Assembly: GCA_021735655.1 (NCBI GenBank)
Contig: JAIPGM010000003.1
Coordinates: forward strand, 192,001-256,000
Direction of reading: 5' to 3'
Length of the DNA: 64,000 nucleotides
From: Candidatus Omnitrophota bacterium
GTDB lineage: Bacteria > Omnitrophota > Gorgyraeia > Duberdicusellales > 4484-171
The notes beneath the pieces are model-generated. The model was not told where the DNA came from and made no database searches. It was given only the letters and a program-made list of their open reading frames with translations. Below, piece by piece: positions 8,348 to 59,498 of the stretch; the stretch's first letter is position 1, and each line of letters begins with the position of its first letter. The translations under genes and the position numbers were made by a program.

Positions 8348-8818
8348 ATGAACGTTTTAGATTATTTAGATTCAGAAAGCATTATTTTAGGTTTAAAAGC
8401 CAAAAATAAAAAGGCTGCTGTTTCGTCTATGCTTGATTATCTTGTTCAAAAAAAGAAGATAACCAAGGATGACAAAAAAACTATTGCCCGGGCCATATTT
8501 CGTCGAGAAGAAATGGGCTCTACCGCGATTGGAAACCACATAGCATTTCCCCACGCTCGAGTGAATTCGGTTAAAGATATTATCATCTGCGTAGGAGTAT
8601 CTAAAGAAGGGGTTGATTTTGATTCTTTAGACCAAGAACCAGTTAGCATTATTGCTTTACTTTTATCGAACCAGAGTGAAGCGGGTTTACATCTTAAAAT
8701 GTTGGCTTTCTTGGCACGAATGTTGCGGGATAAATATCTCGTTCAGAGATTGAAGAACGCAAAAAGTCAGACTGAAGTCATAGCGTTGTTGCGTCAGCAA
8801 CAGCAAGCGATTGGTTAG
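8348..8818 (+). CDS. ptsN: PTS EIIA-Ntr nitrogen regulatory protein (PtsN, EIIA type-2 fold)
   Basis: STAIGNHIAFPHARV contains the phospho-acceptor His motif of the EIIA fructose/Ntr family. Length is 156 aa. Confidence 0.8.
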   Translation: MNVLDYLDSESIILGLKAKNKKAAVSSMLDYLVQKKKITKDDKKTIARAIFRREEMGSTAIGNHIAFPHARVNSVKDIIICVGVSKEGVDFDSLDQEPVSIIALLLSNQSEAGLHLKMLAFLARMLRDKYLVQRLKNAKSQTEVIALLRQQQQAIG

Positions 8819-8845: not shown

Positions 8846-10108
8846 ATGAAAAAATTTATAAAAGTTATACGTTGGTTATACCCAGGCTTGCGGATAAAGC
8901 GGTGGGTAGGATTATTAGTTTTAAGTAGTTTTTTCGTGATTTTTTCTACGGTTCGTTTTATCTATGATGTTGATCCGGTTTTGCGAATATTCGATTTGGT
9001 TTTATTTGTATTTTCTTTCGCCGGTTTTATTGCTGGGGTAAAATCATTGATTGAGAGTTTTTTTGAAGCCATTTATCCTGGGAAGAATAAAGAACTGATT
9101 GATATAATTTACGAAAAACGATTTCTTTCCAAGGGACCAAAAATTGTAGCTATTGGTGGAGGAACTGGCTTGTCAACCATCCTTGAAGGCTTAAAGAAAT
9201 ACACCGCGAATATAACCGCAATCGTTACTGTGGCTGATGAAGGAGGGTCTTCGGGGCGATTGCGTGAAGAATTTGGAATATTGCCACCGGGTGATATACG
9301 TAACTGCCTTGTTTCCTTGGCTGAGGTTCCTCAGATGATGCGTGATTTGTTTCAATATCGTTTTGAGGAAGGAGATGGTATCAAAGGCCATAGCTTTGGT
9401 AATCTTTTCATCACGGCTATGACTCAGGTGACCGGAAGTTTTAAGGATGCTGTAGAAGAATCAAGCATTGTTTTAGCCATCCGGGGAAGGGTTTTGCCTT
9501 CGAGCCTTGATCGGATTCGTCTTAAGGCTGAATACGGTGATGGGACAACTAAAGAGGGAGAAGATAAGATTCCTGACGAGGGAAGATCAATAAAGAACAT
9601 TTGTCTTATTCCTGATGACCCTAAGCCAAATCCCGAAGCAATTGAAGCAATCCGCGAGGCTGAAATAATAGTTTTTGGTCCGGGAAGTCTATTCACTAGC
9701 GTTATTCCAAATCTTTTGATTGGTCAGATTAAAGATGAGATTTCGAAGCGCGATGTTATGAAGTTGTATATTTGTAATGTTATGACTCAAAATGGCGAAA
9801 CTGATGGTTTTACAGCTTTTGATCATTTCAATACAATTGTTTCACACACTAAGAAAAATGTGATTAATAGCTGTTTGGTGAATTCGGGACGTCTTGAACA
9901 TCGTCTTTTAGTTAAATATGCTCAGGAGAAGTCTTTTCCGGTTATCTTTGATCGTGAGCGTTTTAAAAAGAAAGGCGTGGGAATATTTGAGGCCAATGTT
10001 GTTAGTAGAAGCAATTATTTAAGGCATGATTCAGAAAGAGTGTCTAAGGAAATTATAAATATTTATAACTATCGGAAGCGACGATGGAAAGTTTGGAAAA
10101 GAAAATAA
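8846..10108 (+). CDS. YvcK/CofD-family gluconeogenesis-factor-like protein with an atypical ~95-aa N-terminal extension carrying two predicted TM helices
   Basis: The core IVAIGGGTGLSTILEGLK...GPGSLFTSVIPNLL matches YvcK/UPF0052. The N-terminus has two hydrophobic helices (GLLVLSSFFVIFSTV; LVLFVFSFAGFIAGV). Confidence 0.7.
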   Translation: MKKFIKVIRWLYPGLRIKRWVGLLVLSSFFVIFSTVRFIYDVDPVLRIFDLVLFVFSFAGFIAGVKSLIESFFEAIYPGKNKELIDIIYEKRFLSKGPKIVAIGGGTGLSTILEGLKKYTANITAIVTVADEGGSSGRLREEFGILPPGDIRNCLVSLAEVPQMMRDLFQYRFEEGDGIKGHSFGNLFITAMTQVTGSFKDAVEESSIVLAIRGRVLPSSLDRIRLKAEYGDGTTKEGEDKIPDEGRSIKNICLIPDDPKPNPEAIEAIREAEIIVFGPGSLFTSVIPNLLIGQIKDEISKRDVMKLYICNVMTQNGETDGFTAFDHFNTIVSHTKKNVINSCLVNSGRLEHRLLVKYAQEKSFPVIFDRERFKKKGVGIFEANVVSRSNYLRHDSERVSKEIINIYNYRKRRWKVWKRK

Positions 10109-10350
10109 TAGTAAATAAAGAGCATGGTTTACATGCACGGCCAGCAACTATTTTTGTCCAGTTAGCCAATAAGTTTAATTCTTCCGTTAAGGTTGTCAAG
10201 GATGGCGAAGCGGTAGACGGTAAGTCAATAATCGCTATTTTAAGTTTAGGGGTAAGCAAGGGGGCAGAAGTGGCTTTAGTTGTTGAGGGTGGTGATTCCC
10301 AAGAGGCTATGGACGAACTCAAAAAATTTTTAGAGGCTGAAAATGATTAA
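10084..10350 (+). CDS. ptsH: phosphocarrier protein HPr
   Basis: HGLHARPA active-site His15 motif, 88 aa. It overlaps the start of ptsI. Confidence 0.9.
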   Translation: MESLEKKIIVNKEHGLHARPATIFVQLANKFNSSVKVVKDGEAVDGKSIIAILSLGVSKGAEVALVVEGGDSQEAMDELKKFLEAEND

Positions 10351-12100
10351 ATTAAAAGGCATTGCTGTTAGTGGCGGAGTTGGGATCGGAACAGTTCTAA
10401 CCTTGAGAAAGGATGAGCTTTCGATTCCTAGGAGAAAAATTGCTCATGATGAGATTTCTCGCGAGATCTATCGTTTGGAAGAGGCTTTGATTGAAACTCG
10501 TCGGCAAATTTCGGACCTTCAAAAGAAGATTTCTCAAGACATTGGCTTTGATCACGGAAGGATATTCGAAGCTCATTTTTTGGTTCTTGAAGACAGGATG
10601 CTTATCGAAGATATTATTAAACAAATTAAAAATAATAAAGTTAACGTAGAGTACGCGTTTTCTCAAAGTGTAAAGAAGTATGTTGATACGCTTTTACATT
10701 TGAACGATGAATACTTAAGAGAAAGAGTTGTCGATATCGAAGATATTGCCCGCAGAGTTTTACGGACAATGTTGAAGGAAAAGGCAACTACTTTAAGTAA
10801 TTTAAAAGAAAAGGTAGTTGTTGTTGCTCATGATCTTGGCCCTTCTCAAACTGCGTCTTTGCCAAAAGAAAATGTTCTTGGGTTTGTTACTGATATCGGA
10901 GGTAGGACATCACATACTGCGATTATTGCTCGTACCTTAAGAATTCCGGCAGTCGTTGGTCTCGAAACAGCTACTGATAATATTAAGTCTGGAGATAAAA
11001 TTATAGTTGATGGGTCAACTGGCGAAGTTATAGTCAACCCGACTGATAAGGTTCTTAAAGAATATGAAAAAAAGTCAACCCTTTATGATAAAGAAATTAA
11101 AGCTATCCATATTCCCAAGGCTTTAAAGGCAACAACCAAGGATGGTAAAGAAGTTATTATTTCAGCTAATATTGAGTTACCTGAAGAATTATCTTTAGTT
11201 AAACAATACGGAGCAGAGGGTATTGGTCTTTATCGGACAGAGTATATTTTTCTGGGCCGGAGGGATTTACCTTCCGAGGAAGAGCAATATGAGGCTTATC
11301 GGTTAGTAGCTAAAAAGGTTAAGCCAAATACAGTAGTTTTTAGGACTATTGATATTGGTGGGGATAAGTTTCTTTCTCGACCAGAAGTTCCCCATGAGAT
11401 GAGTCCTTTTTTAGGTTGGCGGGCAATTAGGTTTTGTTTAGCCCGACCAGAAGTGTTTAAAGCTCAGCTACGGGCAATTTTGAGAGCTTCGGTTGAGAAA
11501 AACGTAAATGTAATGTTTCCGATGATTTCGGGGGTAGAGGAACTCAGGGCGGCCAAAGCTATTCTTAATGAGTGTAAAGGTGAACTACGTAAAGAAAACA
11601 AACATTTTGATGAAAAATTGGCAGTTGGCACGATGATTGAAGTTCCTTCGGCAGCTTTAACGGCTGATGCCTTAGCTAAAGAGAGTGATTTTTTTAGTAT
11701 TGGAACTAATGATTTGATTCAATATTCTTTAGCCGTTGATCGGGGAAACGAAAAGGTTGCTTATCTTTATGAACCGGGGCACCCGGCAGTATTGAAACTT
11801 ATAAAACAGGTTATCGATGCGGCTCATAAAAATAAGATTTGGGCAGGCATGTGCGGGGAAATGAGTGGTGAGCCTATTTTTTCATTTTTACTTTTAGGTT
11901 TAGGGCTTGATAAGTTTAGTATGTCTCCGCCTCAGATTCCTAAAATAAAAGAGTTAATCTCTAACGTTAAATTTTCTGACGCTCAAAAGATTGCCGTCAA
12001 GGCTTTAAATATTTTAACCGCCAAGGAAGTTGAAAAGTATTTTCAGGGCGAGCTAAAGAAGATTTTAAAAGATAAATTTAACCATATTTTAATGGTTTAA
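10343..12100 (+). CDS. ptsI: phosphoenolpyruvate-protein phosphotransferase (PTS Enzyme I)
   Basis: GGRTSHTAIIARTLRIPAVVG phospho-His motif and the C-terminal PEP-utilising TIM-barrel motifs. Confidence 0.9.
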   Translation: MIKLKGIAVSGGVGIGTVLTLRKDELSIPRRKIAHDEISREIYRLEEALIETRRQISDLQKKISQDIGFDHGRIFEAHFLVLEDRMLIEDIIKQIKNNKVNVEYAFSQSVKKYVDTLLHLNDEYLRERVVDIEDIARRVLRTMLKEKATTLSNLKEKVVVVAHDLGPSQTASLPKENVLGFVTDIGGRTSHTAIIARTLRIPAVVGLETATDNIKSGDKIIVDGSTGEVIVNPTDKVLKEYEKKSTLYDKEIKAIHIPKALKATTKDGKEVIISANIELPEELSLVKQYGAEGIGLYRTEYIFLGRRDLPSEEEQYEAYRLVAKKVKPNTVVFRTIDIGGDKFLSRPEVPHEMSPFLGWRAIRFCLARPEVFKAQLRAILRASVEKNVNVMFPMISGVEELRAAKAILNECKGELRKENKHFDEKLAVGTMIEVPSAALTADALAKESDFFSIGTNDLIQYSLAVDRGNEKVAYLYEPGHPAVLKLIKQVIDAAHKNKIWAGMCGEMSGEPIFSFLLLGLGLDKFSMSPPQIPKIKELISNVKFSDAQKIAVKALNILTAKEVEKYFQGELKKILKDKFNHILMV

Positions 12101-43483: not shown

Positions 43484-43639
43484 TTATTTTTTCTTTTTTG
43501 TGCGTCGCTTTTGGGATGGTTTTATGAAATATTGTCGTTCTCGGAACTTCTTAACAATCCCTTCTTTTTTACATTGAGCCCGAAAACCGCGCAAAGCTCT
43601 TTCAAAATCTTCATTTTTGTTAATTTGTACTTCAGCCAT
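43484..43639 (-). CDS. rpsU: 30S ribosomal protein S21, 51 aa; missed by the ORF track because it is under 60 aa
   Basis: Hand translation of the minus strand gives MAEVQINKNEDFERALRGFRAQCKKEGIVKKFRERQYFIKPSQKRRTKKKK, which matches the S21 family pattern. An AGGAGG RBS lies 6 nt upstream of the ATG. Confidence 0.7.
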   Translation of the reverse strand: MAEVQINKNEDFERALRGFRAQCKKEGIVKKFRERQYFIKPSQKRRTKKKK

Positions 43640-43764: not shown

Positions 43765-45624
43765 ATGGTTAAAGATAAAAAGCTTAATTTAAAGGATATT
43801 TTCTGTATTGCTACCGGGGCGATGATCTCATCAGGCCTTTTTGTCCTACCAGCTATTGCCTATCGCTATAGTGGGCCTTCGATAATTTTAGCTTATCTTG
43901 TTGCCGGTCTTTTAATGATTCCTTCCATTTTTAGTAAATCTGAGCTTCTTACAGCTATGCCCAAGTCCGGAGGCACCTATTTTTTCATCGAGAGAAGCTT
44001 TGGCCCACTTTTAGGTATTTTCGGCGGGTTAGCCAGTTGGTTTTCACTTAGCTTGAAGAGTGCTTTTGCTCTAATCGGTATCGGTGTATTTTTAGAATAT
44101 TTTTTGCCTTCAGCGAGCAGTCCTCAACTTTACTTTTTCATTAAGCTGATTGCGGCTTCTTTCTGTATAGTTTTTGTTTTAGTAAATATATTCAGTGTGC
44201 GCTTGAGTGCACGGTTACAGAACGTTTTAGTTTTCTTTTTACTTACGATTTGCGTTTCTTATATAGTTTTTGGGATAAAAAACATAAATTATGATAACTT
44301 TCGTCCTTTTATGTCTAAAGGTGTTTGGCCGTTTTTTTCGGTAGTCGGTTTAGTTTTTGTTTCTTATGGAGGTCTTACTAAGGTAGCTTCAATTGCCGAG
44401 GAAACTAAAGATCCTTCGCGAACTATTCCGGTTGGTATGTTTTTATCTTTCTTGGTGGTTCAAGTGATCTATGTTTTATCTGTAGCAGTGACAATTGGCT
44501 TGCTTTCATCGGGAGAATTAACTTCAACTTTTACCCCCTTAACTCATGGGGCGATTAAAATTGGCGGAATAACCTTTGGTATAGTTATTTCTCTGGCTGC
44601 GCTGGCGGCCTTTATTACTACTGCTAATGCCGGTATTTTGTCTTCTGCTCGGGTGCCTTATGCCATGGCTAAAGACAGCTTGCTTCCTTCTAAATTTTCT
44701 TTAGTTTCAAAAAAGTTCAATACTCCTTATGTTTCGATAATTTTTACCGGCTTGTTTATGCTTTTTTTGATACTTTTTTTGGATTTAGAAAATTTAGTTA
44801 AGACTGCCTCAACTTTGATGATTATTCTTTTTATTTTTGATAATCTTTCGGTAATTATAATGCGTCAAAGTCGCTTGATAAACTATCGGCCTAATTTCCG
44901 TTCGCCGTTTTATCCCTGGATGCAAATATTTGCCATTTTTGCATACGGATTTTTAATTTTTAAAATGGGCATAATACCTTTGGCGATAAGTGCTGGTTTT
45001 ATCGGTGTGAGTTTAATTTGGTTTGGTTTTTCATCGCGAAAGATTAAGCGCCAATCTGCCCTGATGCATATTGTTGAGCGGGTAACTGCTAAGGAGTTCG
45101 TAGATATATCTTTGGAAGATGAGTTAAAAGAAATTCTTCATAAGCGGGATAATGTTATTAAGGATCGTTTTGATCATTTGATTGAGAAATGTTTAGTTCT
45201 AGACTTAGATAAAGATATAACTAGGGATGGTTTTCTTTCTTTGATTTCAGAGGCTTTGCATCAGAGATTAGATATCGATAAGAAAATCGTTAAAGATTTA
45301 CTTATTGAGCGAGAAGAACAGTCAACCACAGTAATTGAAAAGGGCTTGGCTTTGCCGCATATCGTTGTTGAGGGGAAGAATAAGTTTGAGATAGTTATTG
45401 TTCGTTCAAAAGAGGGCCTAGCTTTTTCACATGAGAAAGATCCGGTTCATATTGTATTTGTTTTGGCTGGTTCAAAGGATGAGCGAAATTTTCATCTTAG
45501 ATCACTTATGGCAATTGCTCAGATTGTTCAAGGACATAACTTTCATAAGGATTGGATGCGAATGAAAGATGGTGAATCGTTACGAATGTTAGTTTTATCT
45601 TCAACCCGCAAACGAGATATATGA
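43765..45624 (+). CDS. APC-family amino-acid permease fused to a C-terminal PTS EIIA(Ntr/Fru)-type regulatory domain
   Basis: About 12 TM helices of APC type over ~430 aa. The C-terminal ~150 aa contain GLALPHIVVEGKNKFEIVIVRSKEGLAF, which aligns with PtsN IAFPHARVNSVKDIIICVGVSKEGVDF and has the same phospho-His context. Confidence 0.75.
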   Translation: MVKDKKLNLKDIFCIATGAMISSGLFVLPAIAYRYSGPSIILAYLVAGLLMIPSIFSKSELLTAMPKSGGTYFFIERSFGPLLGIFGGLASWFSLSLKSAFALIGIGVFLEYFLPSASSPQLYFFIKLIAASFCIVFVLVNIFSVRLSARLQNVLVFFLLTICVSYIVFGIKNINYDNFRPFMSKGVWPFFSVVGLVFVSYGGLTKVASIAEETKDPSRTIPVGMFLSFLVVQVIYVLSVAVTIGLLSSGELTSTFTPLTHGAIKIGGITFGIVISLAALAAFITTANAGILSSARVPYAMAKDSLLPSKFSLVSKKFNTPYVSIIFTGLFMLFLILFLDLENLVKTASTLMIILFIFDNLSVIIMRQSRLINYRPNFRSPFYPWMQIFAIFAYGFLIFKMGIIPLAISAGFIGVSLIWFGFSSRKIKRQSALMHIVERVTAKEFVDISLEDELKEILHKRDNVIKDRFDHLIEKCLVLDLDKDITRDGFLSLISEALHQRLDIDKKIVKDLLIEREEQSTTVIEKGLALPHIVVEGKNKFEIVIVRSKEGLAFSHEKDPVHIVFVLAGSKDERNFHLRSLMAIAQIVQGHNFHKDWMRMKDGESLRMLVLSSTRKRDI

Positions 45625-46655
45625 TACCTAAAACAAAAATCATTGCTACCCTAGGCCCGGCGAGTAATACCGAGGCTGTTCTGAGAAAAATGTACCTGAG
45701 TGGTCTTGATATAGTACGGCTTAATTTTTCACACGGTAACCATCAAGAACATTTACAACGAGTGAAGATCGTCCGTATGCTTAATAAAAAATTGCATCGG
45801 GCAGTTAAGATAATGCAGGATTTAGAGGGTTATCGTCTGCGAGTCGGTAAGTTAAAAGAGCAATTTTATTTAAAAAAAGGTGAAAAACTTTACTTAACTC
45901 AGGAAGATATTCTGGGAGATAGAGGAGAAGTGTCTTTTGACTATAAAGGTTCGTTGAGACGCATTAAAAAAGGATTTTTAATCCATATTGATGATGGTCG
46001 GATAACTCTGAGAGTTTTGTCAGTTGAAAAAAAGTGCCTAAAAACTCGAGTAGTTACCGAAGGTCAATTAAGGGATTCAAAGGGGATAAATATCCCTGAG
46101 GCAAAATTAGAGTTTGAGGCGCTTACCGATAAAGATAAAAAGGATGTAAAAGTAGCCATAGCTCAGAAATTTGATTATATTGCTCAATCTTTTGTGAGTT
46201 CAGCTAAAGATTTAAAGTTACTTAAAAATATAGTTTTACCGAAGCATCCAAAATGTAAGTTTTATGCTAAGGTTGAAAGTAGAATTGCTTTGGTTAATTT
46301 AGATGAAATTATTAACGAAGCTGATGGAATAATCGTTGCTCGTGGCGATCTTGGTATTTGTGTTCCAATCTATAAAGTCCCCACCATTCAGAAAGAGATT
46401 GTTAAGAAGTGCCATTCTAAGAATAAGCCGGTAGTTGTGGCGACTCAAATGCTGGACAGTATGACTGACCAAGCGTTACCGACTCGGGCTGAGGTAAGTG
46501 ATGTAACTAATGCTATTCTTGATGGTGCGACTCATCTTCTTCTATCGGCTGAAACGGCAGTTGGCCGGCATCCTCAGAGAGTAGTAGATATGATGAATAA
46601 GGTAATTAAGAACACTGAGAGCTATCAGAGAAAGTTAAAGGATTTATTGAAATGA
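45621..46655 (+). CDS. pyk: pyruvate kinase-like protein with A and B domains only; the C-terminal allosteric domain is absent
   Basis: IIATLGPAS, RLNFSHG, the K-V-E-S signature region and MLDSM...PTRAEVSDVTNA. Length is 344 aa against about 470 typically. ATGA overlaps with the permease stop and the coaB start. Confidence 0.7.
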   Translation: MIPKTKIIATLGPASNTEAVLRKMYLSGLDIVRLNFSHGNHQEHLQRVKIVRMLNKKLHRAVKIMQDLEGYRLRVGKLKEQFYLKKGEKLYLTQEDILGDRGEVSFDYKGSLRRIKKGFLIHIDDGRITLRVLSVEKKCLKTRVVTEGQLRDSKGINIPEAKLEFEALTDKDKKDVKVAIAQKFDYIAQSFVSSAKDLKLLKNIVLPKHPKCKFYAKVESRIALVNLDEIINEADGIIVARGDLGICVPIYKVPTIQKEIVKKCHSKNKPVVVATQMLDSMTDQALPTRAEVSDVTNAILDGATHLLLSAETAVGRHPQRVVDMMNKVIKNTESYQRKLKDLLK

Positions 46656-47284
46656 GGATATTAATAACAGCCGGAGCAACCTGGGTTAAGGTTGATGAGG
46701 TGCGGATCTTTACGAATTGCTTTACTGGTAAGAGCGGGCTTTATTTAGCCCGAGAACTAAAGAAAAAAGGTCATTCAGTCACTCTTTTGATAAACCCTCA
46801 TTGTACCGGCAAGATAAGTGATATCACTTCAGTTTATTATCGTTATTTTGATGAATTTAAAAGTAAAGTTTATCAAATTTTACGAAAGAAAAATTATGAC
46901 GCTATAATTCACATGGCTGCAGTGAGTGATTATCAGTTAAGGGTCCCTAAAAAAGGCAAGATTCCATCGGGCAGGAGCAACCTAATATTAAAACTGGTGC
47001 CGGCTGAGAAGATCGTTAAGACAATTAGAAAACTAGCCAAGGAAGCACTATTAATCCAATTTAAATTAGAAGCCAATCGTAAAGGTTTAAAGGAGAAGGC
47101 CTATAAAAGTCTAAAAAGCAATAAAAGTGATTTTGTGGTTGCTAATAGTCTAACCGATATGGACTTAGGTTATAAGGCTTTCTTAATTAATGATAAGAAA
47201 AAAGTGATTAATATCGGATCTAAAAAAGCCCTTGCTGATACTTTGAATCGGATTATAATAAAACAATCATGGAAAAAGGTCTAA
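46652..47284 (+). CDS. coaB: phosphopantothenate--cysteine ligase (stand-alone CoaB)
   Basis: MRILITAGATWVKVDEVRIFTNCFTGKSG matches the CoaB/DFP C-terminal domain family. Confidence 0.75.
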   Translation: MRILITAGATWVKVDEVRIFTNCFTGKSGLYLARELKKKGHSVTLLINPHCTGKISDITSVYYRYFDEFKSKVYQILRKKNYDAIIHMAAVSDYQLRVPKKGKIPSGRSNLILKLVPAEKIVKTIRKLAKEALLIQFKLEANRKGLKEKAYKSLKSNKSDFVVANSLTDMDLGYKAFLINDKKKVINIGSKKALADTLNRIIIKQSWKKV

Positions 47285-48995: not shown

Positions 48996-49652
48996 TTGGC
49001 GATGAGGAAGAGTTTTACTTTAATCGAGTTGATTGTAGTCATTGCGATTATCGCAATTCTAGCAGCAATCATCGCCCCTAATGCTTTTAGAGCAATCCAA
49101 AAAGCCAAGGCGTCTAGAATAATAGCTGACTTCACTGCTATTAAGAGTGCAAGCATGAGCTTTTATGCTGATACCGGTAGTTGGCCGGTAAATATTGAAC
49201 CTAGGCCAGATCCCGGAGGTACTAATTCTTGGACTTGGATAAAAAGTGGCCAGCATCCTCTTATGGATAATCTTAATAATTGGATTGGTTGGGACGGACC
49301 TTATCTAGAAAGCTCTTTAGCTTCGCCTTCTCCGCCTACTGGTGTTCCGGGCTGCACAAGCCCCGGATACTATTATACCCAATGGTGGGGCAGCGGTTGG
49401 CATGCGGGAGGTTATGGCAAATTTGATTTGGATAAAAATCCAAGTACCGGCGGAGCTTGTTATATAGCTGCTACTGGCTGTGAAGTTAATAGCGCTTGGA
49501 GTATAAATATTTTTCCTATACCTGCGGACGTGATGAAAAGTATCAACCTGGCTTTAGATGGTGACGATTCTTTTGATGATATGCTCGGGCGAGTGCAGGT
49601 TTATAGCGGTTGCGATGGTTTAGTAAGTTTTTACGTTTCTCATCCGATATAG
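48996..49652 (+). CDS. prepilin-type N-terminal cleavage/methylation domain protein, a putative major pilin or pseudopilin and paralog of 13881..14501. The likely start is the ATG at 49002 (MRKS|FTLIEL).
   Basis: Class III signal MRKS|FTLIELIVVIAIIAILAAIIAPNAFRAIQKAKA with Glu+5, and a C-terminal GWDGPYLES motif shared with the 13881 protein. Confidence 0.8.
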   Translation: MAMRKSFTLIELIVVIAIIAILAAIIAPNAFRAIQKAKASRIIADFTAIKSASMSFYADTGSWPVNIEPRPDPGGTNSWTWIKSGQHPLMDNLNNWIGWDGPYLESSLASPSPPTGVPGCTSPGYYYTQWWGSGWHAGGYGKFDLDKNPSTGGACYIAATGCEVNSAWSINIFPIPADVMKSINLALDGDDSFDDMLGRVQVYSGCDGLVSFYVSHPI

Positions 49653-50410: not shown

Positions 50411-51520
50411 ATGGATCAAAAGAAGACACCACTTTACGAACAGCACATAAAACAAAATGGCCGAATGGTTAATTTTTCCGGTTGGGTTCTGCCTTTGGAA
50501 TATAGAAGTAGTCTTGAAGAGGCAAAGGCTGTCCGAAGCAGCTGTGGTATTTTCGATGCTTCACATATGGGCGAAATAGAGGTGACCGGAAAAGACGCCT
50601 TAGCGTTTTTGCAAAAACTTTTGAGCAACGACCTTTCTTTACTTAAGACCCAACAGATGCAGTACAATCTTATTCTTAATTCAGCCGGAGGTGTGGTTGA
50701 TGACTGTATGGTTTATTGTTTAGAGAATAAATTTCTCTGCGTAGTGAATGCTTCCAATAAAGATAAGGTTTTTAGCTGGTTTAATAAAAATAAGCAAGGC
50801 AATGTTGAAATCAAGGATAAAAGTGAGGAGTTAGCTCTAATTTCTCTCCAGGGACCGAAAGCCGTTGGAGTGATTGCGGAAGTTATTGGTATTAAGCCTG
50901 TTGAGTTAAATTATATGTCTTTCTTAGAAGCTGCAATCGATAACAAGTCTTTTTTAATTTCTCGTAGCGGTTATACCGGTGAAGATGGTTTCGAGCTTTA
51001 TGTTCCTTCTGGTGATGCTGAATTTTGGTGGAATAAACTTTTAGCGGCTGGTGAGGTTTTCGGAATTACGGTTTGTGGGCTAGGGTCTCGTGATATTTTA
51101 AGAATTGAGGCTGGTTACCCTTTGTATGGTCATGAGCTTGATGATATTATTAATCCTTATGAAGCGACTTTGGCTTGGGCCCTAAAGCTTAATAAAGATT
51201 TGATTGCTAAAGAAGAATTAATGCATATTCAGCAGGAGGGTTTAAAAAGAAAGAGAGTCGGTCTAGTTATGCAGGAACGGGCTGTTCCGCGTCAGGGTTA
51301 TTCGGTATACTTTAAAGATAAAGTTGTTGGAGAAGTTACTAGCGGTACTTATTCTCCTAATCTGGAACAGTTTATTGCTATGGCTTATTTAGATAAACAG
51401 TACACAGAAGTTGATTCAGAGGTTAAAATAAAGATTCGTGATAAGTTTTATCAAGCAAAAGTGGTAAAGTTTCCTTTTATAAGACCAAAAACAAAAAAGT
51501 TAGCAAGTAAGGGGGCTTAA
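50411..51520 (+). CDS. gcvT: glycine cleavage system aminomethyltransferase T
   Basis: TPLYEQH, the GWVLPLEY N-terminal motifs and the folate-binding fold. Confidence 0.9.
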   Translation: MDQKKTPLYEQHIKQNGRMVNFSGWVLPLEYRSSLEEAKAVRSSCGIFDASHMGEIEVTGKDALAFLQKLLSNDLSLLKTQQMQYNLILNSAGGVVDDCMVYCLENKFLCVVNASNKDKVFSWFNKNKQGNVEIKDKSEELALISLQGPKAVGVIAEVIGIKPVELNYMSFLEAAIDNKSFLISRSGYTGEDGFELYVPSGDAEFWWNKLLAAGEVFGITVCGLGSRDILRIEAGYPLYGHELDDIINPYEATLAWALKLNKDLIAKEELMHIQQEGLKRKRVGLVMQERAVPRQGYSVYFKDKVVGEVTSGTYSPNLEQFIAMAYLDKQYTEVDSEVKIKIRDKFYQAKVVKFPFIRPKTKKLASKGA

Positions 51521-51521
51521 A

Positions 51522-51902
51522 ATGTCAGAGTTTAAATTCACTAAATCTCATGAATGGGTGAAAGTAGAGCCAGATTCAGCAACTATCGGGATAACTGATT
51601 ATGCTCAATCTCAGCTAGGTGATGTTGTATTTGTCGAACTGCCTAAACCTGGAGGCGCAATTCAACAGACTAAGCAGTTTGGTACCATTGAATCAACCAA
51701 GGCTGCCAGCGAGCTTTATGCTCCGATCGATGGAGAGATCGTTGAAGCTAATAACAATGTAGTTTCGAATCCTCAACTAGTTAATCAGTCAGCTCAAGAT
51801 TTTGGCTGGTTACTTAAGGTAAAGATTTCTGATTTTTCTCAGCTTGATAGCTTGATGGATGAAGTAGCTTATCAAGAGTTTGTAGCTAAAGAAAGTAAAT
51901 AA
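51522..51902 (+). CDS. gcvH: glycine cleavage system H protein (lipoyl carrier)
   Basis: ESTKAASELYAPIDGEI contains the lipoyl-lysine motif. Length is 126 aa. Confidence 0.9.
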   Translation: MSEFKFTKSHEWVKVEPDSATIGITDYAQSQLGDVVFVELPKPGGAIQQTKQFGTIESTKAASELYAPIDGEIVEANNNVVSNPQLVNQSAQDFGWLLKVKISDFSQLDSLMDEVAYQEFVAKESK

Positions 51903-51917
51903 GCAGAAACTAATCAT

Positions 51918-53264
51918 ATGCCTTACATTTTAAATACCTACAAAGAAACTGAAGAGATGCTACGGGCAATTGGAGTAAGTTCGATTGAAGATCTTTACAG
52001 CCAAATACCTAAAGATTTAAGGCTCAAAGCAGCACTTAACATACCTAGTGGTTTGAGTGAGTTAGATACTAAAAGAACCGTTAAGGGGCTTGCTGAAAAA
52101 AATATTCCGATTGATGAGTTTAATTCATTTCTCGGTGCCGGATGCTATGATCATTACATACCGGCGGCTTTAGAGTTTATAGTTTCTCAATCTCAACTGC
52201 TTACCGCTTATACCCCTTATCAAGCTGAGTGCTCGCAAGGTATTTTGCAGGCAATTTATGAGTACCAAAGTTATATCTGTCTTTTAACTGGCATGGATGC
52301 TTCTAACGCTTCTTTGCTTGATGGGGCTTCGAGCTTAGCTGAGGCAGTCCTGATGTCTTTGAGAGTAACTAAACGCAATAAGATTGTTGTACCTTCTAAT
52401 CTTCATCCCGAATATCGTAAAACTCTCGAAACCTATTTAAGTGGTTTTGATTTTGTGGTTAAAGACCTAGAATTAGGAGATGATGGATTAGTAAATTTAG
52501 AGGGAGCTAAAGCGGTAATTGATCAAGATACAGCCTGTTGCATTATTCAGAGCCCTAACTTTTTTGGTTTGATTGAGAAGGTAGAGGATTTGGCAGCTTT
52601 AGCTAAAGAAAACGGGGCGATGACGATTATGGTGACCAACCCTTTATCGTTAGCAATATTTAAGGAGCCATCCAATTTAGGTGTTGATATTATTTGTGGT
52701 GATGGCCAACCTCTTGGGGGAAGCCTTAATTTCGGCGGGCCTTCATTTGGATTCTTAGCCACTAAGAATGAATATATTCGTCAGTTACCCGGACGGATTG
52801 TTGGAAAAACTAAAGATGCCCAGGGTGAGTGCGCATATTGTTTAACTTTGCAAACTCGCGAGCAGCACATCCGTCGCGAAAAAGCAACTAGCAATATTTG
52901 TTCTAATCAATCTTTGAATGCAATAGCTGCGGCAGTTTATCTTTCACTTGTCGGTCGAGATGGTCTCTATGATACTGCTCTTTATTCTTTTAGTAATACT
53001 CAATATCTTTATAAGCGCCTTAAGGAAGTAAGGGGAATTAATATTCCTTATTCGCAATCAGTGTTTAATGAGTTTGTTTGGGAAGTGGATAATTCAGAAA
53101 TTATATTAGCTAAACTTTATCATAAAGGAGTAATCGCCGGTTACCAAATTGGCAAGATATTTCCTCAACATAAAGACCGAATTTTAAGTTGCTGTACTGA
53201 AAAAAAGACCAAGGATGATATAGATCAATTTATTTATTTTTTAGCCGAGATACTGCATGGATAG
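51918..53264 (+). CDS. gcvPA: glycine dehydrogenase (decarboxylating) subunit 1
   Basis: GcvPA N-terminal subunit family, 448 aa, in a gcvT-H-PA-PB order. Confidence 0.88.
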   Translation: MPYILNTYKETEEMLRAIGVSSIEDLYSQIPKDLRLKAALNIPSGLSELDTKRTVKGLAEKNIPIDEFNSFLGAGCYDHYIPAALEFIVSQSQLLTAYTPYQAECSQGILQAIYEYQSYICLLTGMDASNASLLDGASSLAEAVLMSLRVTKRNKIVVPSNLHPEYRKTLETYLSGFDFVVKDLELGDDGLVNLEGAKAVIDQDTACCIIQSPNFFGLIEKVEDLAALAKENGAMTIMVTNPLSLAIFKEPSNLGVDIICGDGQPLGGSLNFGGPSFGFLATKNEYIRQLPGRIVGKTKDAQGECAYCLTLQTREQHIRREKATSNICSNQSLNAIAAAVYLSLVGRDGLYDTALYSFSNTQYLYKRLKEVRGINIPYSQSVFNEFVWEVDNSEIILAKLYHKGVIAGYQIGKIFPQHKDRILSCCTEKKTKDDIDQFIYFLAEILHG

Positions 53265-54708
53265 AAAATTAATATTTCAAAAAAATAGCGAGTTAAAATC
53301 AAGTGGTTATGTTGGGAAACCGAGTGTTTCCTTAATTGATCCTAGGGATGTTTTTCCTGATCAGTTTTTGCGTAGCGAGTTGCCCCTGCCTCAATTAGGT
53401 GAGCTTGAAGTAATTCGGCACTATAGTCAGTTAGCCGAGCTTAACTTTTCAGTCGATACCCATTTTTATCCTCTTGGTTCTTGTACTATGAAATATAATC
53501 CGAAGCTTAATGAGTCTTTGGCCAACCTAGAGGCTTTTAAAGGAATCCATCCTTATCAGGATCCAGAATCGGTGCAAGGGGCTCTTGAGCTTATCTATAA
53601 TTTGAATATGCTTTTATCTGAAATAACCGGAATGAAACAATTCACCTTTCAGCCCTCAAGCGGTGCTCAAGGTGAGCTTACTGGCTTGTTGATGATTCGT
53701 AAGTTTCATCAAGTTTCTGGAAATAGGAAGACTAAAGTTATTATTCCTGATTCAGCCCATGGCACAAACCCAGCCTCAGCTAGTATGTGCGGCTATGAGA
53801 CAGTGATAATTGAAAGTACTGAGGGAGGATTAATCGATATTGAAAAACTAAGAGCAGCGGTAGATCAGGATACAGCAGCGATAATGCTCACTAATCCTAA
53901 TACTTTGGGTTTGTTTGAAGAACAGATTCTGGAAGTGGCAGCAATAGTTCATCAGGCTGGAGGTTTGCTTTATTATGACGGAGCAAATTTTAACCCGCTT
54001 TTAGGCATTACTAACCCGGCGAAAATGGGTTTTGATGTTATTCATCTTAATTTGCATAAAACCTTTTCTACTCCCCATGGCTGCGGTGGTCCCGGAGCTG
54101 GTGTGGTTGGAGTTGCTAGCAAGTTAGTTGATTTTCTTCCTACACCAGTCGTAGCTAAAAAAGATGACGTTTATTATTTTGACTACTCGCTGGAAAATTC
54201 AATTGGCCGTTTACGTACCTTCTATGGTAATTTTGGCGTTTTAGTTAGAGCCTATAGTTATATTTTACGTTTAGGAAGGGAGGGCTTGTTGCGAGTCGCT
54301 CAAAATTCAGTAATTAATGCAAACTATATAAAGGAGAAGTTAAAGAATCATTATCATTTGGCTTACAATAAACCTTGTATGCATGAGGTAGTTTTTTCAG
54401 CTAAGCTTCAGAAAGAAAAAGGTGCCTCAGCTTTAGATATCGCTAAAAGACTTATTGACTACGGTATCCATCCGCCGACGATATATTTCCCTTTGATTGT
54501 TAAGGAGGCCTTGATGATTGAGCCTACTGAAACTGAGAGTAAAAAGACTCTCGATAAATTTATCCGGGTGATGATTAGCATCGATCGAGAGATAGCTGAG
54601 GAATTATACAAGGTTAAGAATGCTCCTTGTGAGGCACCGATTAAAAGGGCTGATGAGGTTCAGGCAGCACGCTTTCCGGAGGTAAGATGGAAAAAAGATG
54701 GCGCTTAA
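53257..54708 (+). CDS. gcvPB: glycine dehydrogenase (decarboxylating) subunit 2
   Basis: PLP-lysine region HLNLHKTFSTPHGCGGPGAG. Confidence 0.9.
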   Translation: MDRKLIFQKNSELKSSGYVGKPSVSLIDPRDVFPDQFLRSELPLPQLGELEVIRHYSQLAELNFSVDTHFYPLGSCTMKYNPKLNESLANLEAFKGIHPYQDPESVQGALELIYNLNMLLSEITGMKQFTFQPSSGAQGELTGLLMIRKFHQVSGNRKTKVIIPDSAHGTNPASASMCGYETVIIESTEGGLIDIEKLRAAVDQDTAAIMLTNPNTLGLFEEQILEVAAIVHQAGGLLYYDGANFNPLLGITNPAKMGFDVIHLNLHKTFSTPHGCGGPGAGVVGVASKLVDFLPTPVVAKKDDVYYFDYSLENSIGRLRTFYGNFGVLVRAYSYILRLGREGLLRVAQNSVINANYIKEKLKNHYHLAYNKPCMHEVVFSAKLQKEKGASALDIAKRLIDYGIHPPTIYFPLIVKEALMIEPTETESKKTLDKFIRVMISIDREIAEELYKVKNAPCEAPIKRADEVQAARFPEVRWKKDGA

Positions 54709-55454
54709 TCGTCGATAAGAAAAAAGACGGTTATTATAATATGGCTGTTGATGAGGCAATACTGCTTAACTATCAAACTCAGCGGGTTCCGACTTTGCGG
54801 ATTTATGGCTGGAGTGAGCCATTTATTACTTTAGGTTACAGCCAAGAACCTAACGAGGTGTTAGAATTAACCAATAAGTTACCTTTTTTAAAGAGAGTTA
54901 CTGGAGGTTCAGCTATTCTGCATGATCGTGAGCTTACTTATAGTATTACCTGCGTGTTGGAGGATTTAAGTTTGACTAGCTCGGTCAAAGAGTCCTATAA
55001 AACTATTTGTAGTTTTTTGATAAATTTCTACCAAAGTTTAGGAATTTCCGTTAAGTATGCTAAAGATACTGAAGAGACAAGCCTAGATGAGCAGACTCCT
55101 TTTTGTTTTTCCAGTTGGCAGAAATTAGATTTGGTTGCGGCTGATAAGAAAATCGGTGGTAATGCCCAAAGGCGTAAGCGAAACTTAATTTTTCAGCATG
55201 GTAGTATTCCTCAAGAATTGGATTTTTCGATAATTGATAAGGCGATTAAAACTCCTTTTGATGTTAGAAAGAGGGCAACTTCTTTGGAACAGTTGCTTGG
55301 CCATCATACCGACTTTTCTTCTTTGAGCCAATTATTAGCTAAAAGCTTCGAAAATACATTTGGGCTTGAACTTTACCGGGATGTGATTTCACCATCAGAA
55401 GAGCTGACAGTTAGTGATATCCTAAAAAAGAAACAGCAGATTCATCTTTTTTGA
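54687..55454 (+). CDS. octanoyl/lipoyl transferase of the BPL/LplA/LipB family (LipM/LplA-N-like). It probably lipoylates GcvH.
   Basis: KRVTGGSAILHDRELTYS and GGNAQRRKRN match LplA-family catalytic motifs. It lies immediately after gcvPB. Confidence 0.7.
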   Translation: MEKRWRLIVDKKKDGYYNMAVDEAILLNYQTQRVPTLRIYGWSEPFITLGYSQEPNEVLELTNKLPFLKRVTGGSAILHDRELTYSITCVLEDLSLTSSVKESYKTICSFLINFYQSLGISVKYAKDTEETSLDEQTPFCFSSWQKLDLVAADKKIGGNAQRRKRNLIFQHGSIPQELDFSIIDKAIKTPFDVRKRATSLEQLLGHHTDFSSLSQLLAKSFENTFGLELYRDVISPSEELTVSDILKKKQQIHLF

Positions 55455-55556: not shown

Positions 55557-55973
55557 ATGGGGAGGCGTTGTAAGAACAAAAATAAATCATTTTCGCTCGT
55601 TGAAATTATCACGGTGATAATCATATTGGGGATTTTAGCGGCAATTGCTTCTCCCTCATATCACAGGATGATTGAGAGAAGCAGGGGCAAACACGCTGAG
55701 TTTAATCTCATGGCTGTTTATAATGCTCAGAAACGACATCGCTTGGCTCAGAAGACCTACTATCAGTGTGTTAGTGCTCCTTGTGGTTCTCAAGAATTAG
55801 AAGATCACTTGGGAGTGTATATAAATGACCCTTATTTTAATTATGGAATAGTAGCTAACACGACTACTTTTACGGCAACAGCTACTAGGATAAATAGTAA
55901 TTTGTGTCTTGGCGCGACTATGAATGTGAGTGACAGTGGAAGTGAACCTATAAAAGGATGTGATCTTTGGTGA
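55557..55973 (+). CDS. minor pilin / pseudopilin (GspH/FimT-like), Ser at -1
   Basis: MGRRCKNKNKS|FSLVEIITVIIILGILAAIASP is a class III signal with Glu+5. Length is 138 aa. Its stop overlaps the next start (GTGA). Confidence 0.75.
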   Translation: MGRRCKNKNKSFSLVEIITVIIILGILAAIASPSYHRMIERSRGKHAEFNLMAVYNAQKRHRLAQKTYYQCVSAPCGSQELEDHLGVYINDPYFNYGIVANTTTFTATATRINSNLCLGATMNVSDSGSEPIKGCDLW

Positions 55974-57538
55974 AAAATAGATTGAATAAAAAGGCTCGAG
56001 GTAACCGGCGTATTTTTGGGGCTTTCGGAGTCTTGATTTTGGCGGCTCTTTTTCTTAGCTCAAGCTATTTCTTTGAATATTCATTTGCTCAAACACACCC
56101 TTTTCTAAAATATTTCCCAGCCAATGAAGAAATAATTACTTATTCTACCGATGGATTTAGCGGTTATCCTTTAGCTTTAACTGAAATAACAAACTGTACT
56201 CCGCCCAGTTTTGGCGGAGTAGATTTATTTAAGGCTCTAGCTGATTGTAATGCTTGTATGGGTTGGAAGGAGGGCTGCGCTGATTGTTGTATTAATCCAA
56301 CAACTCCGCCAGAGTACTTTTGTGCTCCCAGTGCAACGGATCCTGGGCCTAGTGGTGGATATAATCCAGTGCCTTTTAGTGAAAATTGCGACGGCTCAAC
56401 TCGAGTTTCCTGTACTACCTGTGGTCCTACCTTTTGTGGTCTTGATCCTGTGTTTGATAATTGTACTGGCTTTAATCCCTTGAATGTTGTTAGTGGCGAT
56501 ATTCCTAATTGTCAGCAGGCAGGATGTCCGATTTCAGATGATTATAGCTCTGTTGGTTGCGTTAGTGTTGGTTCCCCTCCTGAAACATATTGCATTGGAG
56601 ATAAAACTCCTCTTGATAAAGGTTGTGTTCCTGTAACTGAAGCCCAAGCAGTAGCAAGCTTGGGGTATAATCCGTTATTCCATACTTCAAGCACTGGGAG
56701 TGATTTTTATACAGTTACTACTCATCCAGCTGGGACTTTTAACGATACTGATGACGTTACAGTTGCCTTTGATAATGAAGGCATAACTTTTGATCCAGAC
56801 AATGATCCCTGCTTTCAGTATGGTCCAGGAGCCTTTTTAAATTATATTAATTCTTGTTCTGTTTATGCTGATGCTGCAGAGGTTGGATTTAAGGATAATC
56901 ACTGTTGTCAGTCTGGAGTATGTAGTGGTGCGGGCATGGGCGAGTGCGATACTAGCGGTGGCAATACAGCTACTATAGCCGATGACGGTGGTTGTACGAG
57001 CATAATGAATAATTGGGATAATCTTATACCTGTTTCTGCAGGGGTTAGTAAAAATTGCCATGCAGTTCAAGCTTTTGAATGTGTTGCTTTGCAAGAATTA
57101 GTAAATAACTGCATACAGAGTAATAACCAGTCTGAATGTAGTGCTTGTTTTGTTGAAATTGATTCAGATTTTCGCTATGAATTTGTGCCAAAAAGCGGAG
57201 AGTCTTTAGTTCTTGTTTGGCTTATTGAGGCGGTACCTGATATGCCAGCGGGCATGAACCCTAATTTTAATACCTATTTTTATAGCATGGTTAGGGTATT
57301 TGAACAGGGTGGAAGCGAACTCGGTCTTCCTACGAATATTGTACATCAGAAAAATTTTACTTCCGCCTTTAGTGTTTTTGGCGCAACATCAATAGATTCA
57401 TCATGGCTTACACCGGGTAAAAAATACGAAATAAGGGTATCTTATTTTATACCTAACGACTCTAATATTCCTCTTGGCGAACACTTAACGATGACCGTAA
57501 ACCGCATGGAACTGGATGTTTTCAGAGTGCGGGAGTAG
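55967..57538 (+). CDS. cysteine-rich secreted or membrane-anchored protein with no recognisable homology; a putative pilus-associated adhesin. The start is a TTG at 55967 or a GTG at 55970.
   Basis: N-terminal signal-anchor KKARGNRRIFGAFGVLILAALFL. About 30 Cys occur in residues 75-390, for example ADCNACMGWKEGCADCC and HCCQSGVCSGAGMGEC. The C-terminal ~130 aa are Cys-free and beta-rich. Lysine is almost absent, unlike the rest of the window. Confidence 0.6.
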   Translation: MVKNRLNKKARGNRRIFGAFGVLILAALFLSSSYFFEYSFAQTHPFLKYFPANEEIITYSTDGFSGYPLALTEITNCTPPSFGGVDLFKALADCNACMGWKEGCADCCINPTTPPEYFCAPSATDPGPSGGYNPVPFSENCDGSTRVSCTTCGPTFCGLDPVFDNCTGFNPLNVVSGDIPNCQQAGCPISDDYSSVGCVSVGSPPETYCIGDKTPLDKGCVPVTEAQAVASLGYNPLFHTSSTGSDFYTVTTHPAGTFNDTDDVTVAFDNEGITFDPDNDPCFQYGPGAFLNYINSCSVYADAAEVGFKDNHCCQSGVCSGAGMGECDTSGGNTATIADDGGCTSIMNNWDNLIPVSAGVSKNCHAVQAFECVALQELVNNCIQSNNQSECSACFVEIDSDFRYEFVPKSGESLVLVWLIEAVPDMPAGMNPNFNTYFYSMVRVFEQGGSELGLPTNIVHQKNFTSAFSVFGATSIDSSWLTPGKKYEIRVSYFIPNDSNIPLGEHLTMTVNRMELDVFRVRE

Positions 57539-57621
57539 GGATTATATAGACGCCATTGAGGGAAGAGATTAGTATAGATTAAGTATTAGGAAAAAGAAAG
57601 ATGAGTACAAGGAGGTACAAA

Positions 57622-59493: not shown

Positions 59494-59498
59494 AAGCT

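Follow-up and report, generated by a model that had tools for sequence, protein, structure and literature searches.

A predicted amino-acid permease of Omnitrophota fused to a PtsN-like EIIA domain, a candidate target of the phosphotransferase system

Can a secondary transporter carry the receiver of its own phosphorelay? This question is raised by a gene in a 64,000-nucleotide stretch of the genome of a Candidatus Omnitrophota bacterium (assembly GCA_021735655.1, contig JAIPGM010000003.1, positions 192,001 to 256,000; hereafter the window). The gene encodes a protein of 619 amino acids in which an APC-type permease is joined, through a conserved linker, to a domain resembling enzyme IIA (EIIA) of the phosphoenolpyruvate (PEP)-dependent phosphotransferase system (PTS). 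It is followed by genes for a short pyruvate kinase (PK) and a coaB-like protein. The positions given for these three genes in the original prediction agree with the open reading frames (ORFs) of Table 1, and the four-base ATGA overlaps at both the permease/PK and the PK/coaB junctions can be read directly in the sequence. We propose, with moderate confidence, that the fusion is a self-contained, PTS-regulated secondary transporter, in which phosphorylation of His532 by phosphorylated HPr (HPr~P) would switch transport. The proposal builds on the architecture of the protein, on the conservation of its phospho-site triad, on genes for Enzyme I and HPr that lie in the same stretch of the genome, and on the finding that the linker and EIIA domain are portable between carriers.

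The fusion is a genuine gene product rather than an artefact of gene calling. A frameshift that would separate the permease from an independent EIIA gene, or a mis-split gene, had been considered from the outset and was ruled out. The coding sequence is a single ORF, and the best 120 homologs are all single proteins of about 615–630 amino acids with both domains and the same architecture. A protein 100% identical to that of the window is on record from a metagenome-assembled genome (MAG) of Candidatus Omnitrophica, where it is named only 'amino acid permease'. Conservation was assessed in a set of 81 homologs that are 51–100% identical to the window protein, and the AlphaFold2 model of the fusion was likewise built on 81 homologs.

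The membrane part of the protein is typical of APC carriers. Both Pfam AA_permease (PF00324; residues 12–408, E 5e-41, 141.2 bits against a cutoff of 24.6) and AA_permease_2 (PF13520; E 2e-39, 136.2 bits against a cutoff of 27) match the fusion protein. Its AlphaFold2 model (mean predicted local distance difference test score, pLDDT, of 85; predicted template modelling score, pTM, of 0.82) contains 12 long transmembrane (TM) helices, the last of which ends at residue 426. These results bear out the earlier description of a 12-TM APC permease. The top Foldseek match of the membrane part is GkApcT (6f34_A), a bacterial homologue of the CAT/SLC7 carriers, with a target-normalised TM-score of 0.84 at 23–24% identity. 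TM-scores to AdiC reach 0.85–0.87, and the membrane part also superposes on BasC and LAT1. The 12-TM LeuT-type fold is thus common to the Omnitrophota permease and to GkApcT (PDB 6f34/5oqt), AdiC, BasC and ApcT. The relationship to GkApcT is also recovered by phmmer (E 2e-34), and the substrate-site segments of TM1 and TM6 align with it residue by residue: GAMISSGLFVL pairs with GAIIGTGIFVL in TM1, and the TM6 motif reads S-Y-G-G-L-T-K in the Omnitrophota permease against A-Y-I-G-F-D-A in GkApcT. Substrate-specific NCBIfam models all score far below their cutoffs (for example, 168 against 690 for BcaP and 215 against 557 for TIGR00909). At the level of the family, the protein is most probably an amino-acid carrier. 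GkApcT and other APC carriers stop soon after TM12, whereas the Omnitrophota protein adds an extension of 190 residues with a presumed regulatory role. Judging from the topology of its homologs, the C-terminus of the carrier would be cytoplasmic.

The extension consists of a linker and an EIIA-2 domain. Pfam PTS_EIIA_2 (PF00359) matches residues 488–609 (E 2e-20, 73.6 bits against a cutoff of 27), and the AlphaFold2 model folds residues ∼468–611 into an alpha/beta domain with pLDDT values of 80–93. The closest relatives of the tail among solved structures, by sequence, are the PtsN proteins of E. coli (1a6j), Neisseria (2a0j) and Burkholderia (4gqx/3urr), followed by EIIA-Mtl (1a3a). As the original prediction had claimed, the tail also aligns with the product of the window's own ptsN gene, including the phospho-acceptor histidine: BLASTP gives E 6e-11 and 32% identity over 78 amino acids, and the ALPH motif of the tail pairs with AFPH. 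Numbered as in E. coli, the PtsN active-site residues Arg57, His73 and His120 align with Arg516, His532 and His577 of the tail. The 81 homologs show no substitution of Arg516 or His532, nor of Pro531 next to the histidine, and His577 is conserved in at least 90% of them. The conservation of this Arg/His/His triad strengthens the suggestion that the tail may be a direct target of HPr~P, and we regard this suggestion as reasonable. The linker is conserved as well. In the same 81 sequences L450, E453, L454, R461 and D462 are invariant, and A432, H435, V437, E438, R439 and T441 are at least 90% conserved; the AlphaFold2 model places its helices at residues 432–441 and 449–461.

The linker and the EIIA domain also occur together on other carriers. 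We searched the tail alone (residues 427–619) against 1.84 billion representative proteins and recovered 352 clusters at E ≤ 1e-10, most of them the APC fusion or its fragments. A second length class, of 730–840 amino acids, carries the tail at the C-terminus with roughly 36–47% identity. The members followed up (P0280, P0281, P0308, P0317, P0348, P0353, P0369 and P0385) comprise proteins with Na_H_Exchanger and TrkA_N domains, a protein with Na_H_Exchanger and TrkA_C domains, a P-type cation ATPase and an ATP-synt_ab alpha/beta-type subunit. On all these carriers the alignment retains the DRFD entry motif, the arginine of R-E-x-x-S-T and the A-x-P-H motif, and the sister fusions also keep DERNxHLR, with one Tyr in place of the histidine, and the C-terminal W...LR...R-K/R-R. 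On several of the CPA antiporter, P-type ATPase and ATP-synthase-type fusions, the V-E-R/K-V-T...E-L linker travels with the EIIA domain. The motifs DERNFHLRALxAIAQI, C-terminal W...LR...RKR and DRFD occur in this cassette and are lacking in free PtsN. The linker and EIIA domain therefore look like a portable regulatory module that would act in cis as PtsN acts in trans. In its unphosphorylated state, PtsN binds the CPA1 antiporter YcgO and thereby silences it (PMC11808508), and it also interacts with TrkA. Since the fusions to CPA antiporters with RCK domains mirror these trans interactions, they may be seen as 'Rosetta stone' fusions. The ATP-synthase alpha/beta-type fusion could be either real or a read-through of gene calling.

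The identity of these sister fusions bears on what the APC carrier transports. They are all cation transporters (CPA with RCK, and a P-type ATPase), so that the window protein might move an inorganic ion or another solute, its module being part of PtsN-governed circuitry of K+ and ion homeostasis. The low scores of all substrate-specific NCBIfam models would be compatible with this, and Pfam AA_permease includes the SLC12 cation-chloride carriers, which are present among the weaker structural matches. However, the nearest relatives of the membrane domain are amino-acid carriers (GkApcT at E 2e-34, AdiC, BasC and LAT1, against ∼1e-13 for SLC12), and the alignment of the TM1 and TM6 substrate-site segments with GkApcT points in the same direction. 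We consider an ion-carrying role quite improbable, and amino-acid transport remains the assignment that we prefer.

Genes for a phosphorelay lie 32–35 kb upstream of the permease gene, on the same strand: they encode Enzyme I, HPr and a free-standing PtsN (Table 1). A Pfam scan of all window ORFs of at least 100 amino acids found no EIIB, EIIC, HprK or second PK, with the limit that an EIIB shorter than 100 amino acids would be missed. At this resolution the inventory agrees with the earlier claim of a PTS with ptsN, HPr and Enzyme I but neither EIIB nor EIIC. The accompanying description of the relay as 'PTS-Ntr-type' is apt only loosely, since the N-terminal GAF sensor of Enzyme I that defines the classical PTS-Ntr is lacking in the Enzyme I of the window. 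The tail, too, falls below the PtsN cutoff. A gene of the CofD/YvcK family (8846–10108) is situated between ptsN and ptsH, and its product has a hydrophobic N-terminal extension of ∼95 residues that soluble YvcK proteins lack. The order ptsN-yvcK-ptsH-ptsI, with no rapZ/yvcJ, mixes Gram-negative and Firmicute arrangements, the Gram-negative order being ptsN-rapZ-npr and the Firmicute order yvcJ-yvcK-crh.

From these components we outline the following mechanism. Enzyme I would autophosphorylate from PEP and pass the phosphoryl group to His17 of HPr. HPr~P would then phosphorylate His532 of the tail, in competition with free PtsN. The phosphorylation state would alter the packing of the linker and the EIIA domain on the cytoplasmic face of the carrier and so turn transport on or off; the direction of this switch cannot be told from the sequence. 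Amino-acid uptake would thereby follow the carbon and energy state of the cell. Because the Enzyme I of the window has no GAF domain, tail phosphorylation would be expected to report mainly the PEP:pyruvate ratio rather than glutamine and 2-oxoglutarate.

Several observations weigh against this mechanism. We infer the phosphotransfer itself, the identity of the donor, the effect on transport with its direction, and what the carrier moves. The linker, which should transmit the signal, is the least confident part of the AlphaFold2 model (pLDDT 61–73). In a gene-order set of 80 genome loci, covering ±10 kb and later extended by the loci of three more distant homologs, HPr and Enzyme I genes are essentially never adjacent to the fusion among the 80. 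The tail is below the cutoffs of the curated PtsN and FruA IIA equivalogs: it scores 38.3 bits against a cutoff of 221 for the PtsN equivalog NF008145, and slightly better with the fructose-IIA model than with PtsN. By these scores the tail is PtsN-like but not a PtsN, and because it lies so far below the PtsN cutoff, the phosphoryl donor could be HPr, NPr or another partner. Finally, one P-type ATPase fusion has a tyrosine in place of the second histidine. The sub-cutoff scores, this tyrosine and the family-specific motifs that set the tail apart from free PtsN would also suit a different role, in which the EIIA-like tail receives no phosphoryl group and works in regulation or as a scaffold, possibly by binding a ligand or partner or by mediating dimerisation. 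The EIIA-like cytoplasmic domain of the SLC4/Band 3 anion exchangers took such a route. Yet the arginine, proline and first histidine are invariant and the second histidine nearly so in the 81 sequences, and the site recurs on unrelated carriers; this is the pattern expected from selection on a phospho-acceptor site. With Enzyme I and HPr also encoded in the same genome segment, we rate a non-phosphorylated tail as unlikely.

The coexistence of a free PtsN and a fused EIIA domain in one genome, where both would draw on one donor, allows a further reading, in which the signal runs the other way. The fusion would be a transceptor: occupancy by the substrate would alter the accessibility or dephosphorylation of the tail, which would titrate HPr~P away from PtsN and so report external amino acids. 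The tail would be one of few phospho-acceptors, as no sugar EIIB or EIIC in the window drains the relay. However, there is no phosphoryl sink beyond the tail, which would limit steady-state titration to stoichiometric amounts, and the presence of the cassette on P-type ATPases and CPA antiporters suits control of transporter output more naturally. We judge the transceptor very improbable and retain PTS control of the carrier as the preferred interpretation.

The known example of such control is LacS, whose fused IIA(Glc)-like domain receives its phosphoryl group from HPr~P and which a 2023 review presents as the sole known bacterial transporter regulated by direct phosphorylation (PMC10710835). 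Like LacS of S. thermophilus and S. salivarius, the Omnitrophota fusion is a non-PTS secondary carrier with a C-terminal cytoplasmic IIA-type domain and its histidine. The two differ in both halves: LacS combines a GPH/MFS carrier with an EIIA-1/Glc domain (PF00358), whereas the Omnitrophota protein combines an APC/SLC7 carrier with an EIIA-2 domain (PF00359), and Pfam found neither a GPH/MFS nor a PF00358 match in it. EIIA-1/Glc and EIIA-2 are different folds. On these assignments LacS is an analogue and not a homologue, since neither half is homologous. LacS carries a sugar, is found in lactic acid bacteria and has had its phosphorylation demonstrated, whereas the Omnitrophota fusion has a putative amino-acid substrate, comes from uncultured phyla and is known from sequence. 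By analogy with LacS, the fusion may be regarded as an IIA-fused, PTS-controlled secondary carrier. If this is correct, direct phospho-control of bacterial transporters reaches beyond a single textbook case.

The purpose of PtsN-type EIIA proteins has been debated for decades, and their known targets are mostly K+ transporters or sensors that are bound in trans. In E. coli PtsN acts on TrkA, KdpD and YcgO. It has the EIIA-2 fold, the Arg/His/His triad and the A-x-P-H motif in common with the tail, but it is a free protein, whereas the Omnitrophota tail is covalently fused, with a linker and C-terminal motifs peculiar to it. As the accompanying Enzyme I has no GAF domain, there is no reason to infer for the fusion the glutamine/2-oxoglutarate sensing known from the classical PTS-Ntr. 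In Rhizobium, the PTS-Ntr has been described as controlling ABC transporters post-translationally (PMC3665714). The searchable literature yielded no description of the APC-EIIA fusion or of the cassette, although an earlier mention in comparative genomics is possible. Surveys by the Saier group reportedly list fusions of IIA-Ntr domains. What makes the fusion interesting is how widely it occurs and what it could tell us about PtsN-type regulation: with at least 589 species and 352 representative clusters, the family offers a direct and genetically simple system for the study of carrier gating by an EIIA-2 domain.

This breadth also means that the fusion is not the local oddity for which it could at first be taken. 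A scan of one genome per species found relatives of the permease-EIIA protein encoded in the at least 589 species just mentioned, from more than 12 phyla. They include Omnitrophota, Planctomycetota (Phycisphaerae and Pirellulales), Cloacimonadota, Latescibacterota, Neomarinimicrobiota and Spirochaetota, as well as Kiritimatiellia, Calditrichia, WOR-3, Armatimonadota, Desulfuromonadaceae and others. Cluster look-ups of ten divergent members returned only MAGs and added Elusimicrobiota and a bin labelled Thermoplasmatota. Every record that we found is a MAG, and no cultured carrier of the fusion was among them. The database names vary between 'amino acid permease', 'APA family antiporter' and 'PTS sugar transporter subunit IIA', and the automatic annotation of the Joint Genome Institute (JGI) already gives a compound name that recognises both halves. 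No neighbouring gene is conserved across phyla: outside the Omnitrophota block, the recurring gene clusters are lineage-specific and comprise at most six loci each. This fits the expectation for a self-contained unit. If the proposed control operates, it would make amino-acid uptake depend on the PEP:pyruvate ratio in Omnitrophota, Cloacimonadota, Planctomycetota and other abundant anaerobes that are uncultured. Several MAGs that are Omnitrophota-like by their permease and synteny (loci L001, L002, L007, L008 and others) are titled 'uncultured Planctomycetia bacterium', and the divergent member P0364 is the one from the bin labelled as a Thermoplasmatota archaeon. The taxonomic labels of these records need caution.

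Table 1. Coordinates of the permease-EIIA fusion, its parts and associated genes (window positions, unless a locus is named)
Feature	Coordinates	Strand	Basis
Permease-EIIA fusion gene	43765..45624	+	Single ORF, 619 aa; Pfam AA_permease, AA_permease_2, PTS_EIIA_2
Membrane domain, residues 1-427, 12 TM helices, SLC7/APC (LeuT-type) fold	43765..45045	+	AlphaFold2 model, Foldseek, phmmer
Conserved cytoplasmic linker, residues 428-467 (KRQSALMHIVERVTAKE...LEDELKEILHKRDNVIKD), two predicted helices	45046..45165	+	Conservation in 81 sequences; AlphaFold2
EIIA-2 (Mtl/Fru/Ntr-type) domain, residues 468-612	45166..45600	+	PF00359; PtsN relatives; AlphaFold2
Arg516 codon, counterpart of PtsN Arg57 (active-site triad)	45310..45312	+	Alignment; codon verified
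His532 codon, predicted phospho-acceptor, A-L-P-H motif	45358..45360	+	Aligns with E. coli PtsN His73; codon verified
His577 codon, second active-site His, D-E-R-N-F-H-L-R motif, counterpart of PtsN His120	45493..45495	+	Alignment; codon verified
Short pyruvate kinase, 344 aa, A and B domains only	45621..46655	+	PF00224 E 8.5e-101; no PK_C match
coaB-like phosphopantothenate-cysteine ligase (DFP domain)	46652..47284	+	PF04127 E 5.6e-34; syntenic neighbour only
Free-standing PtsN (EIIA-Ntr-type, 156 aa)	8348..8818	+	PF00359 E 4e-35
HPr, 88 aa, catalytic His17 (GLHARPA), regulatory Ser48 (GKS); presumed phosphoryl donor	10084..10350	+	PF00381 E 6.9e-29
Enzyme I, 585 aa, PtsI type, no GAF	10343..12100	+	PEP-utilisers_N, PEP-utilizers, PEP-utilizers_C only
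SAM hydroxide adenosyltransferase gene	L004 8876-9670; L017 8403-9197; L082 8881-9663		

The gene directly downstream of the fusion raises a second question, namely whether the permease and the PK form a functional unit, as the original prediction had suggested. The adjacency is real and so is the ATGA overlap in the window, but the functional link is the weakest part of the finding. Nine distinct Omnitrophota loci, the window among them, have PK directly downstream of the permease, on the same strand and at a distance of −3 to +140 bp; the permeases of these loci are 53–100% identical to that of the window. Before the more distant homologs were added, the arrangement was seen in 5 of the 80 loci. 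PK is absent next to the permease in the close loci L001, L003 and L007 (72–74% identical), where the permease runs directly into coaB, and in L008 (56%). The same holds for about 70 loci that belong to other or more distant lineages. The adjacency is thus confined to a subset of Omnitrophota. In several Omnitrophota relatives, a gene for SAM hydroxide adenosyltransferase (SAM_HAT_N/C, DUF62), often accompanied by a TilS-like ATP_bind_3 gene, is found between PK and coaB; the window lacks both.

In its strongest form, the functional link would make the permease-EIIA protein and the PK a dedicated module, in which the PK sets the local PEP:pyruvate ratio and the ATGA coupling fixes the stoichiometry. 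The permease-PK junction is never interrupted in the nine loci, which include L081 and L084 with otherwise different flanking genes, whereas the PK-coaB junction has taken insertions of SAM_HAT, ATP_bind_3 and acetyltransferase genes; the ATGA overlap itself recurs in L004 and L082. Against this stand the four close relatives and about 70 other loci that have no PK in this position, the spacers of 1–140 bp that replace the overlap at other loci, and the short form of the PK, which is family-wide and not tied to the locus. Moreover, the genes of the block addA-addB-permease-PK-coaB-coaC-rmuC keep a syntenic order although they are housekeeping genes of unrelated function, so that the permease-PK adjacency may simply be inherited gene order. 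The tight, uninterrupted junction is compatible with co-transcription, and inherited order explains it equally well. We therefore consider a dedicated module improbable; the data are compatible with a PK that is co-transcribed with the permease in part of Omnitrophota without being its obligatory partner.

The PK itself is a genuine gene under selection. PF00224, the PK barrel, is its sole Pfam match (residues 3–321 of 344), and its score of 408 bits with TIGR01064 exceeds the cutoff of 306.4. Full-length PKs of 470–606 amino acids, and likewise the NCBIfam PK models of 470–590 residues, align with it only up to their own position ∼340, PK_C (PF02887), the C-terminal effector domain, gives no match, and the protein ends at the A/C boundary. 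The C-domain is not encoded next door either: the following gene is coaB in the window and SAM hydroxide adenosyltransferase in L004, L017 and L082, and no PK_C ORF adjoins the PK in the window, L004, L006 or L017. The absence of a C-domain, claimed earlier, is thereby substantiated. A truncated pseudogene was likewise ruled out, as the length of 336–353 amino acids and all catalytic residues are conserved across the short-PK family. The residues R33, N35, S37, D67, R74, K154, K217, E219, D243, T275, S309 and E311 are invariant in 17 family members; we take them to correspond to R73, N75, S77, D113, R120, K207, K270, E272, D296, T328, S362 and E364 of the rabbit enzyme. The best 120 relatives are all of 330–395 amino acids with PF00224 only and no C-domain. 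Because the short form is standard in all of them, the loss of the C-domain characterises the lineage and is not an adaptation of this locus. PykF and PykA have the A and B domains and the catalytic residues in common with the short PK, but they alone have the C-domain for effector binding and tetramerisation. NF005234/PRK06739, a 352-residue NCBIfam profile, describes another PK with no C-domain, of which the window PK is not a member (281 against 564 bits).

The short PK also departs from canonical enzymes at the monovalent-cation site, where D-L-E-G-Y-R-x-R-V replaces D-T-K-G-P-E-I-R-T. An invariant M-Q-D-L-E-G-Y-R-x-R motif occupies this site (PK residues 67–75, window 45819–45845). The K+-dependent signature is T113/K114/E117/T120, and K+-independent PKs have L113/Q114/K117/(L,I,V)120 (PMC8835810). 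In these positions the residues of the window PK are L68, E69, R72 and V75, which differ from the K+-dependent signature and resemble the K+-independent one, with arginine for Lys117. From its residues, the enzyme looks active and is probably K+-independent. Cys247 (46359–46361), in the motif GDLGICVP, is also invariant, where canonical PKs have glutamate (GDLG-I/V-E-I/V-P). We found no description of the Omnitrophota short PK in the searchable literature. A whole lineage appears to run glycolysis with a PK that is unable to use the classical allosteric site and that probably works without K+.

Combining the cassette with the PK leads to a broader and more tentative idea. The linker and EIIA cassette could be a general PTS-driven phospho-switch that uncultured phyla have attached to four or more kinds of membrane proteins for energy conversion and transport (APC carriers, CPA antiporters with RCK domains, P-type ATPases and an ATP-synthase-type subunit). 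In part of Omnitrophota, this switch would be co-expressed with an effector-blind PK that sets the PEP:pyruvate ratio. We regard this generalisation as possible but doubtful. If true, the cassette would define another class of directly histidine-phosphorylated bacterial transporters, the second after LacS and by far the larger one, and would provide a 'Rosetta stone' for an ancestral PtsN-type task of gating transporters by the PEP:pyruvate ratio.

The surroundings of the fusion gene add several minor observations. Downstream of the coaB-like gene, the window continues with coaC and then rmuC. A promoter and terminator scan of 43.3–49.1 kb returned element counts at the level of shuffled sequence. 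The spacer between addB and the permease contains a 50-residue ORF on the minus strand (43487–43639; MAEVQINKNEDFERALRGFRAQCKKEGIVKKFRERQYFIKPSQKRRTKKKK) that resembles ribosomal protein S21 (rpsU). Being oriented divergently to the permease gene, this ORF leaves only ∼125 bp for a permease promoter. About 9 nt upstream of the permease ATG there is an extended −10-like element, TGgTATGAT, and there is no obvious Shine-Dalgarno sequence. The permease mRNA may therefore lack a leader, or its leader may be very short.

A complete glycine-cleavage cluster (gcvT, gcvH, gcvP1, gcvP2 and lipoate-protein ligase; 50411–55454), together with a lipoyl synthase gene (60445–61341), is located 5–15 kb downstream of the permease, and gcvT is also found downstream in the syntenic locus L084. 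The cluster might be a sign that glycine, or some other amino acid, serves as a catabolic substrate. Type IV pilin-like N-terminal methylation motifs (N_methyl) occur in many genes scattered through the window, and several ORFs that neighbour them (55967–57538, 57601–58461, 60047–60460 and 63258–63737) have no Pfam match. The window also contains a PilM-like gene; the positions of the pilin-like and PilM-like genes are 13881–14501, 48996–49652, 55557–55973, 58597–60071 and 61769–63256.

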